A stretch of DNA of 27,954 nucleotides, from assembly GCA_051003655.1 (NCBI GenBank), contig JBPCLD010000097.1, positions 1 through 27,954 of the forward strand, given 5' to 3'. Each line of letters opens with the position of its first letter. The stretch's first letter is position 1. The DNA is from Candidatus Limnocylindrales bacterium (lineage in GTDB: Bacteria > Chloroflexota > Limnocylindria > Limnocylindrales > CSP1-4). A program made the translations under genes and the position numbers. Shown one piece after another: positions 9,058-12,362 of this stretch. A model generated the notes under the pieces. That model worked only from the letters and a program-made list of their open reading frames with translations, was not told the origin of the DNA and ran no database searches.

Positions 9058-12000
9058 GCGCTCCGCAAGCAGCGTCCGCCGAAAAGGCCGACGCCAGGGC
9101 GAACGCTCAACCGATCGTCGAAGCGTCAGAGGCAGCGCCCGCGGAACTCGCGACGTTTGGGGGTGAGCGCGCGCTCAACGACCCCGAGCTTAGCCACATG
9201 GATTCGCGCGGGTTTCTGTCGCTTCAGCGGGCCGCGGGAAATCGCGCGGTGGCCGCGCTCCTGGGTGGCTTGGCGGGCATTCAACGCCGGCCAAAGAGCG
9301 GACTGGCTGCGCTGATGGGTGAATCGGACATCTATGCCGAGCCCCTTAGTGACAAGCCCGTTGAGTCGATGGGCTACAACGACGTGAAGAACGAGATCAG
9401 CGACATCAGACGGTGGCTCGACAAGCAGACCACGTCGACGCACGAGGAGAACAGGCGCAGCATCCGGCTGCGCAAGCTGGATGCCCGCCTTCAGGAGCTT
9501 CAGACTCCGACCGCCCCAAAGAAGGGCAAGGACGGGCCGCGCGGCAAGGTCACGGTTCCCAAGCCCCTGTCACTCAGTGAGACGCTCGACATCTCGAACA
9601 TGGGCAAGGCGGACATGGCCGCGGAGCTGGACACGATCGTCGCTTACCTCAGGACATCTCCGGGTAAGTCCGTGCAGCGCAAGCTGGCCCCGGTCAGGGC
9701 CGCGCTCGAGGACGCCCTGGGGATGGAACGGGTCGCGAAGAACGAAGAGATTAGGAAGCGCGATATTGCGATCGCGCTGCGGCCGCTCGGTGGCAACGCG
9801 AAGGACCAGTTCGAACAGGTCGTCAAGACGATCCACGCCATAAAGCCATCCCCTGACAACCCCGAGGTCGCCCTGCTCGAGCCTCCGGGCGGCGGAATGG
9901 TCATCCCCGTATCGCACGAGGAAGCCAAGGCGCTCAAGGACGAGGCGGGAAAATTGATCCGGAAGTACGCCCGCCAGTCGGCCGACTTGGCGGTCTCGGC
10001 GTACGACGGATACCGCGAGCGCGTCGTTCACAACAACAAGCAATGGATCGTGCATGGACTAGTGAAATGGTCGACCGGCGTCGACGACCTGGACGAGCTC
10101 GAGATGTTCGGCGACAAAGAGACGGCCCGCGGTCTCAGTGCCCTGGTCACGCAGCTCGTGAAAGAGGGCAATCACCCGATGGGGCTGTGGAAAGCCTTCG
10201 CTCTCGAGAACTTCGCGACGAGCTACGCCCAGAAGGTTGGGAGCTGGGAAGCCGAACTCGTCGGTGGAGCGGGCCGATGGGTGCTCGGGCTGACCATCCT
10301 GAAGGAGGGGCTGACGCTTCTGGCCACGGCCGGCGCGGGTGCACTCATCACTGCAAAAGCGGCCCAGGGCGTAAGCACTGTGCGCGCCGCCCTCACGGTC
10401 GGTGGAGCAACGACGGCTGCCGGCGGTGGCGGCGCCTTCGTAGGTTCGCTGGCCGAGCAGGCGGCAGGCGGCGAGGGCATCTCCGTCAAGAAGACTCTCA
10501 AGGCCACCGCTCATGGGGCTGGTACCGGTCTCTCGGTCGGCGGGGCATCGGGCGCCGGCGCGGTTGCGAAGCAGGCGTTCGGCGTTGGCAAGGCCGCCAG
10601 CACGAGCGGAAACGTGGTCCGCGCCGTTGGGGCTGAGGTTGTGTCGAGTACCACCGTGAATGTTGCGGCTGCCGGGCTGCAGGGCGAATCGCTCAAGGAC
10701 GCAGCGGTCAGCAGTATCGCCAGCGCACCGATCAGCGCAGCGGGTGGTGTGGCGGTCAAGAACATCGCCCAAGGGAACAAGGTGGTCGAAACGGCTGGCG
10801 GCGCCATAGTCGGTTCTGGCTCGAATGTCGTTGGCGCGCTGGCCGCTGGCAAGAAGCCTGCCGAGGTCAAGCAGGCGGCCCTGGTCGGGGCTGCGGGCGG
10901 TGCGATTGTGCCGCACGTCGAGGCGTCGGCTATCAAGTATCACGAGGGGCAAGCCGCGGGCGCTGGCGGCGCGGGCGGAACGTCAACAGACCAACCAGGT
11001 GGAGGTTCATCGGGCCAGGTTGCCGGAGGTGGTTCATCGGCGGTCAGGCCTCCTGACGCGCCCGACCTGATGTCGAAGTTCGACCTTTCTGATGTCGGCG
11101 GGGTACCCGCCGTCGAACCGCCGCGCCAAGCCCCGGTAATGCCCGTGCGACCGCCGCCAAAGAGGGTGGTCCCAGCGACCGCGGTACGCGAAGACGTGGG
11201 AACCGCGGCGACCTTGCCCGAGGACGTCGGAGCAGTTCGAACCCAGCCCGAAGATGTCGGCGGAGCTCCGACTCAGCCGGAGAACGTGGGCGTGGTTGGA
11301 ACGCTACCGGCGGCCGGGGCAGGTCGAAACGTGGGCTCAGCCGGGACACTCCCCGCCCCAGATACGGCACTCGCAGCAACGCCCGCGGCCCCGCAGCCCA
11401 TCGTTCCAGTTGACGCCGGCACTGCGGCTGGTGGGACCGGCGCCATTGGTCCCCAGACCCCCCCTGCGCGGCCGAATGCGCGACCACTGCTTCCCGCATC
11501 GGCAGTCCCGGCAGACATGCCCGCTGCGGCAAAGCCGGCCATCGAGCTGCATCCCCAGAATCAGTACTTCGACAAGGGGCACGACATCGCTGCGCAGCCC
11601 AACCCGCCCACCTCAACCCCGACCGCTGATTTCCCGGCCGATCAGCCCGGCCGGTACGTGCCGACTGGCGAGAAGCCTCTGGCGGGACTCTCGGCAGAGT
11701 CCAGCTTCGTCGTGAAAGACACGGCAGACAGTGACAAGCTGCACCTGTTCAAACCCCTGGCCGGGGAGACCGCCGTCGACCGGGCGGAGGCACGTGGCAT
11801 CCGCGCCGGCGAGCAGGGCCCGCGCGAGGTCGCTGCCCATGAGGCCGCAATAGCGGTAGGTGTTTCGGCCCCCAGGGCCCGGCTCGTGACCATTAACGGT
11901 CAGAAGGGTGTGCTGGTCGAATGGCAGCAGAAGAACACGCTAGCCGACCTCGCTCTCACCGACCGCGCCGCCTTCGACCGACTCATCAAGTCGGAGAAGT

Positions 12001-12362
12001 TCAAAGATGCGATGGGCAGTCTCGATGCGCTCGACTACCTCATCAACAATCTCGATCGTGCGCTGAACTTCGGAAACTACCTGTACGAATTCCTTCCCAA
12101 TGGAACGCTCAAGCTGACTGCAATCGATCACGGCCTCACGTTCACCAGCACCAAGGAGCGAGCCTCCGTAGTCGGCTGGACGCGCGAACTCCCCGAGTCG
12201 TATTCAGCGGACCTCAAGAAGAACCTGACTGAACTGGGCGCCAACAGGGACGCTTTCATTGCCCAGATCCGGCCGTTCATCGGGGAGGAGGCGGTGCCCG
12301 GTGTCCTTCAGCGGCTCGACACCATGCTGTCGGACATGAGGGCGAAGGAGCGCAAGCCGTGA
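9054..12362 (+). CDS. Putative CIS effector 1 (1102 aa): LQRAAGNRAV leader, Gly/Ala-rich hydrophobic region, C-terminal HipA/PI3-PI4-kinase-like domain
   Basis: GTG start overlaps the ATPase stop. LQRAAGNRAV at 9222-9251. Kinase-like motifs LFKP, REV, LDYLINNLDR..NFGN, AIDHGLTF. Confidence 0.8.
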   Translation: MSAPQAASAEKADARANAQPIVEASEAAPAELATFGGERALNDPELSHMDSRGFLSLQRAAGNRAVAALLGGLAGIQRRPKSGLAALMGESDIYAEPLSDKPVESMGYNDVKNEISDIRRWLDKQTTSTHEENRRSIRLRKLDARLQELQTPTAPKKGKDGPRGKVTVPKPLSLSETLDISNMGKADMAAELDTIVAYLRTSPGKSVQRKLAPVRAALEDALGMERVAKNEEIRKRDIAIALRPLGGNAKDQFEQVVKTIHAIKPSPDNPEVALLEPPGGGMVIPVSHEEAKALKDEAGKLIRKYARQSADLAVSAYDGYRERVVHNNKQWIVHGLVKWSTGVDDLDELEMFGDKETARGLSALVTQLVKEGNHPMGLWKAFALENFATSYAQKVGSWEAELVGGAGRWVLGLTILKEGLTLLATAGAGALITAKAAQGVSTVRAALTVGGATTAAGGGGAFVGSLAEQAAGGEGISVKKTLKATAHGAGTGLSVGGASGAGAVAKQAFGVGKAASTSGNVVRAVGAEVVSSTTVNVAAAGLQGESLKDAAVSSIASAPISAAGGVAVKNIAQGNKVVETAGGAIVGSGSNVVGALAAGKKPAEVKQAALVGAAGGAIVPHVEASAIKYHEGQAAGAGGAGGTSTDQPGGGSSGQVAGGGSSAVRPPDAPDLMSKFDLSDVGGVPAVEPPRQAPVMPVRPPPKRVVPATAVREDVGTAATLPEDVGAVRTQPEDVGGAPTQPENVGVVGTLPAAGAGRNVGSAGTLPAPDTALAATPAAPQPIVPVDAGTAAGGTGAIGPQTPPARPNARPLLPASAVPADMPAAAKPAIELHPQNQYFDKGHDIAAQPNPPTSTPTADFPADQPGRYVPTGEKPLAGLSAESSFVVKDTADSDKLHLFKPLAGETAVDRAEARGIRAGEQGPREVAAHEAAIAVGVSAPRARLVTINGQKGVLVEWQQKNTLADLALTDRAAFDRLIKSEKFKDAMGSLDALDYLINNLDRALNFGNYLYEFLPNGTLKLTAIDHGLTFTSTKERASVVGWTRELPESYSADLKKNLTELGANRDAFIAQIRPFIGEEAVPGVLQRLDTMLSDMRAKERKP
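11190..11309 (+). repeat. Four degenerate 30-bp (10 aa) coding tandem repeats in effector 1
   Basis: EDVGTAATLP / EDVGAVRTQP / EDVGGAPTQP / ENVGVVGTLP, with a fifth partial copy RNVGSAGTLP at 11325-11354. Confidence 0.85.

Follow-up and report, generated by a model that had tools for sequence, protein, structure and literature searches.

Two effectors and their coupled downstream genes

We have analysed a stretch of 27,954 nucleotides (the window) from Candidatus Limnocylindrales bacterium of the Chloroflexota (contig JBPCLD010000097.1 of GenBank assembly GCA_051003655.1), which has a G+C content of 65% and carries genes of a contractile injection system (CIS) together with two long effector genes whose products end in similar kinase-like domains. 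Each effector gene is followed immediately by a small gene, and the analysis suggests that the domain may act as the C-terminal kinase-fold toxin of a CIS cargo and the small protein as a cognate immunity protein that would bind at its active site, a reading that we consider moderately probable.

The effectors, their downstream partners, the neighbouring ATPase gene and the domains and motifs mapped within them are all on the forward strand. Effector 1 (P0001; 1102 amino acids with a GTG start; positions 9054-12362) consists of a leader of about 70 amino acids, a Gly/Ala-rich middle part and the C-terminal kinase-like domain. Effector 2 (P0002; 1944 amino acids; positions 12631-18465) has a leader like that of effector 1, a different middle part containing an HExxH motif and, again, a C-terminal kinase-like domain. 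The two proteins resemble each other at the N-terminus (residues 1-71 of effector 1, 39% identity) and in the C-terminal domain but nowhere between, and the kinase domain sits behind approximately 840 amino acids of cargo in effector 1 and approximately 1680 in effector 2. Database copies of effector 1 begin at Met49 and are 1054 amino acids long. Residues 1-48 (positions 9054-9200) are conserved with effector 2, and the GTG at 9054 overlaps the stop codon of the ATPase gene; the annotated Met49 start is probably too short, and the GTG is favoured because the N-terminus that it adds resembles that of effector 2.

Directly downstream of effector 1 lies a gene for a protein of 91 amino acids (P0003; positions 12359-12634), the candidate immunity protein, which overlaps both flanking genes by 4 nucleotides, and downstream of effector 2 a gene for a protein of 95 amino acids (P0004; positions 18462-18749) that is 58% identical to the first. 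Neither belongs to a Pfam or NCBIfam family, and Pfam returned nothing of note for 21 members of the small-protein family. Upstream of effector 1 is the gene for a Pvc15-like AAA+ ATPase with a winged-helix domain (positions 6964-9057; Pfam WHD 1e-29, AAA 1e-21), whose stop codon shares 4 nucleotides (GTGA) with the effector start. Such ATGA or GTGA overlaps of 4 nucleotides are found at all five junctions, namely Pvc16/AAA, AAA/effector 1, effector 1/small gene 1, small gene 1/effector 2 and effector 2/small gene 2, and thus the genes from Pvc16 to the second small gene form one translationally coupled operon, which is closed by a convergent LuxR/GerE regulator gene. The kinase/small-gene pairs are bordered by the AAA ATPase gene, the gene of the other effector and this LuxR/GerE gene; no helix-turn-helix (HipB) gene adjoins them and no Cro/C1-type gene was found. 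Around the effectors, Pfam identifies a sheath protein, a gp19-type tube protein, CIS_tube, eCIS_core, Pvc16_N and the AAA+/WHD ATPase of Pvc15 type. As far as sequence can tell, both effectors have what marks cargo of the extracellular CIS (eCIS) or Photorhabdus virulence cassette (PVC) type, that is, a place in a CIS operon, beside a Pvc15-like ATPase, and an N-terminal leader.

It is also worth recording what lies in the middle parts of the effectors. The HExxH motif of effector 2 (HEARH; positions 16642-16656, P0002 residues approximately 1338-1342) falls in a region that has no Pfam match even at E <= 1 and could mark a further enzymatic module or a peptidase involved in processing. In effector 1, a hydrophobic Gly/Ala-rich stretch (positions approximately 10250-10980, P0001 residues approximately 400-640) could be a membrane-active or tube-packing segment; it is 47% identical in the effector of the related locus L012, and a similar stretch is visible in that of L010.

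The kinase-like domain and its catalytic loop

Copy 1 of the kinase-like domain occupies positions 11571-12362 (P0001 residues 840-1102, with the folded core from about residue 860) and copy 2 positions 17674-18465 (P0002 residues 1682-1944). Residues are numbered below within P0001 840-1102, so that 839 is added to obtain the P0001 number. The last 240 residues of both reading frames, encoded in frame up to the stop codons at 11640-12362 and 17743-18465, were the subject of an earlier note on this DNA, made from the sequence alone, which described an atypical HipA/PI3-PI4-kinase-like domain and counted by hand 161 identical residues among 227. The high identity stands, although the figure is now 166 of 239 (69%; 68% at the nucleotide level), and by BLASTP the likeness reaches 289 amino acids at 66% identity (E 3e-118). 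The translations also bear out that the motifs LFKP, REV, DYLINNLDR and AIDHG are intact in both copies. The lysine of LFKP, K900 (K61 in domain numbering; positions 11751-11753), would be the ATP-binding lysine, its FKP being aligned with the FKP of PI4K2A and PI4K2B; it is the equivalent of K152 of the type II phosphatidylinositol 4-kinase PI4KIIalpha, where the exchange K152A inactivates the enzyme (PMC3974213). The aspartate of AIDHG, D1025 (D186; positions 12126-12128), aligned with the IDNG of PI4K2A/B, would be the metal-binding residue equivalent to that of the DFG motif.

HMMER, run exhaustively against 1.84 billion cluster representatives, yielded 122 relatives at E <= 1e-3, 59 of them at E <= 1e-10, and in most of these the domain forms the C-terminus of long, otherwise unrelated proteins. 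A family alignment of 90 sequences (A1) was built, while the scan of related loci used the 31 closest sequences. Across A1, D162 and D186 are invariant and K61, R85, D155, R163 and N169 are at least 90% conserved. A search of the PDB with the single domain sequence gave no match at E <= 10 and only the family profile reached the type II phosphatidylinositol 4-kinases (PI4KII), namely PI4K2B (E 4e-12) and PI4K2A (1e-9), with FKP, DYhhxNxDR and IDxG aligned; the next matches were Fam20, actin-fragmin kinase, SMG1, CtkA (E 0.46) and HipA. The Pfam family PF00454 (PI3_PI4_kinase) is matched by 65 of the 90 family members at E <= 0.01 (best 2e-12), placing the wider family, on its profile matches, at the edge of PF00454.

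The AlphaFold (AF2) model built on A1 has a predicted local distance difference test (pLDDT) score of 95.8 and a predicted template modelling (pTM) score of 0.92. Foldseek against the PDB places PI4KIIalpha at the top (E 2e-8), followed by CtkA and then HipA, and VIA-align gives the same picture, with PI4KIIalpha/beta at Z 17-18 (222-230 residues aligned, root-mean-square deviation approximately 4), CtkA at Z 15-16, Fam20 at Z 14-15, HipT at Z 11.9, HipA at Z 10-11 and MavQ at Z 10.7; structural neighbours in the Swiss-Prot part of the AlphaFold database add plant PI4K-gamma, Rv2133c and Rickettsia proteins. The model is thus bilobal, retains K61, D162, N169 and D186 and aligns with kinases at Z 10-18 over approximately 200-230 residues, and the outcome against which the earlier note had guarded, a fold that is not kinase-like, is contradicted. 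Its description of the domain as an active kinase agrees with the fold and with the conserved phosphotransfer residues as far as computation allows. From these data the domain is probably an active enzyme, a compact ATP-dependent phosphotransferase (approximately 240 amino acids) that belongs to the protein-kinase-like clan and stands nearest to the type II phosphatidylinositol 4-kinases and CtkA.

The catalytic loop sets the subfamily apart. It reads DRALNFGN in copy 1 (D1001-N1008; positions 12054-12077), with A1003 and L1004 inserted relative to DRHxxN, and DRSHNWGN in copy 2 (D1842-N1849; positions 18154-18177). In the 90-sequence alignment the two extra residues stand directly after DR in both window copies and in approximately 35 of the closest representatives, whereas distant members have DR[HN]xGN, a loop of the canonical six residues; the expanded loop reported earlier is therefore a two-residue insertion, and it is this that marks the distinct subfamily. 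In the set of 31 closest sequences no change is seen at D162, R163 or N166 and almost none at G168 or N169, while positions 164, 165 and 167 take 8, 8 and 7 residue types, respectively. It is at exactly these three positions that the window copies differ in the loop, and within a near-identical block of approximately 55 residues around the catalytic core they are the sole non-conservative differences, so the earlier observation that the copies diverge in the loop does stand out.

The suggestion drawn from it, that the copies act on different substrates, is not supported because positions 164, 165 and 167 are hypervariable across the subfamily. The substrate-specificity interpretation was rejected on the grounds that the differing residues are the two inserted positions and one neighbour, all of them freely variable; in the predicted complex described below they face the small downstream protein and not an identifiable substrate site. 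The insertion is a subfamily trait on a surface predicted to dock the candidate inhibitor. The earlier note took the domain alone, and the CIS-cargo context and the conserved, coupled partner gene tell us more about function than does the loop.

The small partner and its predicted complex with the kinase

In 8 of 10 related loci the kinase gene is directly followed by a gene for a homologue of the partner, and the 4-nucleotide overlap between the two genes is present in all eight pairs whose kinase lies in one frame (six related loci and the two window pairs). The pairing extends to distant kinases. Downstream of a kinase that is 41% identical (locus L019) the partner is recognised by hhalign at 99.8% (E 2e-27), and in L021, where the kinase is 31% identical and has a canonical DRHKGN loop, the partner forms the N-terminus of a longer downstream protein (hhalign 95.7%). 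Moreover, a phage head-morphogenesis cluster with terminase, portal and prohead protease genes (L016:6001-8747) includes a MuF-kinase fusion of the wider family, and the coupled downstream reading frame of 83 amino acids is weakly similar to the partner family (hhalign 72%), so that the pairing may persist there as well. Because it is found with distant kinases, including the canonical-loop kinase of L021, the pair is by these comparisons older than the loop insertion. The arrangement is that of polymorphic toxins as judged from the sequences, with a C-terminal module on varied carriers and a small cognate gene immediately downstream.

When the kinase (A2) and the small protein (A3) were folded together the interface score ipSAE was 0.89, with 0.88-0.89 in three runs and 0.00 for the best control; the mark used for this score is reached by 58 of 80 solved complexes and by 2 of 110 mismatched pairs. 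In the complex the partner has a pLDDT of 88, and at least 93% of the contacts are common to the runs. On the kinase side, the confident contacts include K61 and I185-D186, the catalytic loop (165-169), N-lobe strands (residues 45, 47, 57 and 59), residues 67-72 and the hinge with the helix after it (116-135). On the partner they comprise R8, R9, P11-E15, residues 38-48 and 52-56 and R76-F80, and include the invariant motifs RRRP and GSRF(W). The small protein is thus predicted to lie over K900, the loop and D1025, as would an inhibitor that occludes the active site.

We also considered whether the interface carries a signature of immunity-driven diversification, and rejected this, as the two paralogous pairs do not differ more often at the predicted interface than elsewhere in the proteins. 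In the kinase 9 of 34 interface residues differ, against 64 of 202 elsewhere (Fisher p 0.69), and in the small protein 9 of 26 against 25 of 60 (Fisher p 0.63). There was no clear covariation between loop residues and the partner residues in contact with them among the approximately 8 usable pairs.

The fold of the partner offers a further lead, with the model of the small protein alone reaching a pLDDT of 87. In a VIA-align comparison with 48,161 chains the top two were HipS of E. coli (7ab3_B, Z 4.1) and HipS of Legionella (7vkb_B, Z 4.0), and ranks 3 and 4 were N-subdomain 1 of HipA (5k98_A, Z 3.7, and 4pu3_A, Z 3.6), with all four spanning the whole protein. The ESM Atlas returned a Couple_hipA cluster (template modelling (TM) score 0.59, 82 residues aligned) and a HIRAN-domain cluster; HipS-like and HIRAN domains together are the architecture of the HipN antitoxins (PMC8262856). 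Foldseek against the PDB found nothing at E <= 0.001, with Legionella HipS at rank 8 (E 1.2), and the AlphaFold database clusters gave only unnamed small proteins at TM 0.6-0.7. By sequence, homology to HipS was tried and rejected: hhalign put the probability of a match between the small-protein family and eight Couple_hipA domains from Chloroflexota at 0.4%, Pfam Couple_hipA was found neither in the organism's own genome nor in the 21 small-protein family members, and the single PDB match of the small-protein profile was to an unrelated protein (E 0.53). The likeness to HipS, for which the fold scores are all weak (Z approximately 4), is therefore a tentative lead, and one that we think will more probably fail than hold.

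The related loci come from Chloroflexota metagenome-assembled genomes labelled Limnocylindrales or Chloroflexia. Three of them (L003, L005 and L012) keep the gene order of the window, from sheath through Pvc16, AAA, effector and small gene to LuxR, and a fourth (L010) has the same eCIS flanks with a different downstream reading frame; the sheath and tube proteins of L005, L010 and L012 are 83-90% identical to those of the window. The arrangement of kinase and small gene is also found within another eCIS locus (P0014), and the kinase domain is further fused to eCIS_core/DUF4157, phage MuF and portal domains. The organism's own assembly, a 1.77-Mb genome that is 70% complete, holds only the two copies of the domain, and because just 5 of 201 searched genomes of the order carry it, the domain is a sporadic accessory gene.

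Several observations on these loci may be added. The syntenic effector of L010 (P0033, 1351 amino acids; L010:7337-11730) carries the kinase internally at residues 879-1127, followed by a further C-terminal domain of approximately 220 amino acids, and is coupled to a downstream reading frame of 112 amino acids that differs from the A3-type partner. A metagenomic representative of 4086 amino acids (P0009) contains two kinase domains (residues 1039-1298 and 3804-4077). In L007:10001-10757, L009:10001-10740 and G183:C1:1539369-1540026 the kinase match is split between reading frames, with an intact small downstream gene in L007 and L009; the split reflects either decay of the toxin with the immunity gene kept or indel errors in long reads. 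Finally, beyond the LuxR gene of the window (positions 19500-25240) are genes for an Ig-like/Cep192_D3-domain protein and two zinc-ribbon proteins, all of which are matched in L010 and only the start of the first in L003, where the contig ends; these proteins may belong to the CIS locus.

A proposed kinase-fold toxin and its relation to known systems

We hypothesise that each kinase domain is the C-terminal toxin module of a CIS cargo. In the producer cell, the co-translated protein of 91-95 amino acids would bind across the nucleotide and catalytic cleft and hold the kinase off, thereby conferring immunity. The cargo would be freed of the small protein, presumably when the adjacent AAA+ ATPase loads the tube, and in the target cell the kinase would phosphorylate a substrate. 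What was computed here, and what this reading is built on, is the fold, the conserved catalytic residues, the operon layout, the predicted complex and the fact that the gene pair is conserved.

Several points weigh against it. Kinase activity, toxicity, the inhibitory role, delivery and the class of substrate are all inferred, and partner binding is a prediction. The complex is a prediction from our own alignments, in which occlusion of ATP is read from the contact list alone. PF00454 scores 15.0 and 15.4 bits on the window domains against a gathering threshold of 27.1 (E approximately 0.02), and the NCBIfam family TIGR03843 (SCO1664 family) scores 29.8 bits against a cut-off of 172.4 (E 3.7e-7), on copy 2 only. 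The conserved residues argue for catalytic competence, although the loop insertion may affect catalysis. The kinase is not always paired with an inhibitor of the partner type, because some relatives (L010 and L017) carry it internally and lack the partner gene, and a role as chaperone or loading adaptor is an alternative for the small co-translated partner.

The last of these points belongs to an alternative in which the domain is a lipid kinase effector directed against eukaryotes such as protists, phosphorylating phosphatidylinositol of the prey membrane, with the small protein as a holding chaperone or loading adaptor. The nearest neighbours in sequence and structure, PI4KIIalpha/beta and plant PI4K-gamma, would suit such a role, as would the existence of bacterial effectors with phosphoinositide-kinase activity (MavQ is matched at Z 10.7) and of relatives without the partner gene. 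However, the domain has no cysteine, which precludes a CCPCC palmitoylation motif, and in the profile alignment it has approximately 54 and 15 fewer residues than PI4K2A at insertions I1 and I3, whereas the phosphatidylinositol pocket of PI4KIIalpha is built partly by I1 (PMC3974213). In addition, the proteins structurally most similar to PI4KII, namely CtkA, Fam20 and actin-fragmin kinase, are protein kinases (PMC3974213). A partner that is predicted over K61, the loop and D186, and is kept down to 31% kinase identity, fits self-protection better than a chaperone, and we regard the lipid kinase alternative as unlikely.

Another possibility is a toxin-antitoxin module of Hip type (hipBST-, hipJS- or hipIN-like) that is not injected but acts inside the producer, possibly together with a cytoplasmic CIS like that of Streptomyces, to serve phage defence, regulated cell death or addiction to the locus. 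Here it is the partner that speaks for the alternative, with HipS or HipA N-subdomain 1 as the top four matches of its model and the Couple_hipA and HIRAN-domain clusters of the ESM Atlas. HipT is known to be neutralised by HipS at its active site (PMC10627512, PMC9325769), and some Hip kinases have a HipS-type gene downstream (PMC8262856). The fold scores are nevertheless weak (Z approximately 4; Foldseek E approximately 1.2), the sequence comparison with Couple_hipA was negative both by hhalign and by Pfam, and there is no HipB-like gene. The kinase stands, moreover, at the end of a long cargo that has a common CIS-type leader and lies within a CIS operon, and HipT and HipA resemble its core less closely than do PI4KII and CtkA, all of which makes the alternative quite improbable. 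Other chemistry on the same fold (AMPylation, glutamylation or ATP hydrolysis), or a pseudokinase serving as a binding module, is very improbable, for although atypical kinase folds can carry out other reactions, as do SelO and SidJ, the catalytic loop is non-canonical and the pseudokinase FAM20A is among the profile matches, the lysine, catalytic aspartate, asparagine and metal-binding aspartate are invariant or nearly so over 90 diverged sequences, which would not be expected of a pseudokinase, and nothing indicates an alternative active site.

Returning to the kinase toxin with its immunity protein, a conserved inhibitor implies that the enzyme would be dangerous to its bacterial producer. 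Thus a protein, or a common small molecule or metabolite, is a likelier substrate than phosphatidylinositol, because a dedicated inhibitor is conserved and the lipid-binding insertions of PI4KII are absent.

Few payloads of extracellular or cytoplasmic CIS have a known activity, and surveys in the literature record no identifiable immunity gene for most of them (PMC8213781). The present locus offers a class of cargo whose enzymatic fold is predicted with confidence and for which a clear candidate for the immunity protein is at hand. As the gene pair is kept in CIS loci across the Chloroflexota and, in more distant form, with a phage MuF protein, one can test directly whether this CIS kills bacteria through phosphorylation. 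A compact bacterial relative of PI4KII that lacks the lipid-binding insertions may also inform how this branch of the kinase fold chooses its substrates. Should the HipS-like fold of the partner prove true, a toxin-antitoxin kinase module would have been reused as an injected weapon. More speculatively, and with considerable doubt, we suggest that CIS cargo and phage MuF head proteins may have in common a hitherto undescribed two-gene module, in which a HipS-fold inhibitor accompanies a minimal kinase toxin of PI4KII/CtkA-like type. This would be an evolutionary link between the type II PI4K branch and the toxin-antitoxin kinases of HipA type; the subfamily loop insertion would then be part of the docking surface, and variation in the loop would tune immunity and not the choice of substrate.

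In comparison with known enzymes, the type II phosphatidylinositol 4-kinases are the best match both in structure (Z 17-18) and by sequence profile (E 4e-12), and share with the domain a glycine-rich loop of GxSxS type, the FKP lysine, DYhhxNxDR, the terminal asparagine of the loop and the IDxG aspartate. The domain is, however, approximately 100 residues shorter than the PI4KII catalytic domain, with approximately 54 fewer residues than PI4K2A between the FKP lysine and the hinge, and lacks the palmitoylation (CCPCC), RK-rich and I3 insertions; in PI4KII the first two of these form the membrane- and phosphatidylinositol-binding surface (PMC3974213). Its loop also differs, the six-residue DRGNDN (DRxxxN) of PI4KII being replaced by DR-AL-NFGN or DR-SH-NWGN, and unlike PI4KII the domain stands at the end of a CIS cargo protein and has a small inhibitor-like protein as its partner. 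CtkA of Helicobacter pylori, the second-best structural match (Z 15-16, approximately 217 residues aligned, the whole model), is likewise a compact bacterial enzyme, a Ser/Thr kinase about as large as the domain, whose targets lie in other cells after its export, although its sequence similarity to the profile is marginal (E 0.46).

The HipT/HipS (hipBST), hipJS and hipIN systems combine, as is predicted for the window, a short kinase that lacks HipA N-subdomain 1 with a separate active-site protein of approximately 100 amino acids, and hipJS and hipIN have the antitoxin gene downstream, as here (PMC8262856). The window system differs from HipT/HipS in the core of the kinase (Z 10-12), in the absence of HipB and in that the kinase is the C-terminus of a secreted cargo of 1100-1900 amino acids, and the window domains score below the thresholds of the HipA families (HipA_C, PF07804, 12.8 bits against 30.5; HipA_2, PF20613, 12.4 against 27).

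The overall layout resembles that of the polymorphic toxins of PVC-type systems and the MuF toxins of phages, in which an N-terminal trafficking part, a C-terminal toxin and a coupled small downstream gene are found, as here. Kinases in truncated form are present in polyvalent and MuF proteins of phages (PMC5512222). The word 'kinase' does not occur in the MuF toxin paper. A kinase toxin of PVC-type systems was predicted in 2012 as the lantibiotic-synthetase-type 'Tox-Peptide Kinase' (PMC3482391), which differs in its motifs (YKP[KR] and DxHxEN) and has no immunity protein listed; the window paralogues, unlike this toxin, keep the toxin end and vary the middle. The eCIS toxin surveys that were searched describe neither the kinase family nor the partner in their main text, and PF00454 is absent from the searched supplements of PMC8213781. 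Kinase toxins as such had therefore been predicted before, and the system in the window is best described as a putative kinase-fold polymorphic toxin on CIS cargo with a previously unnamed family of candidate cognate immunity proteins.

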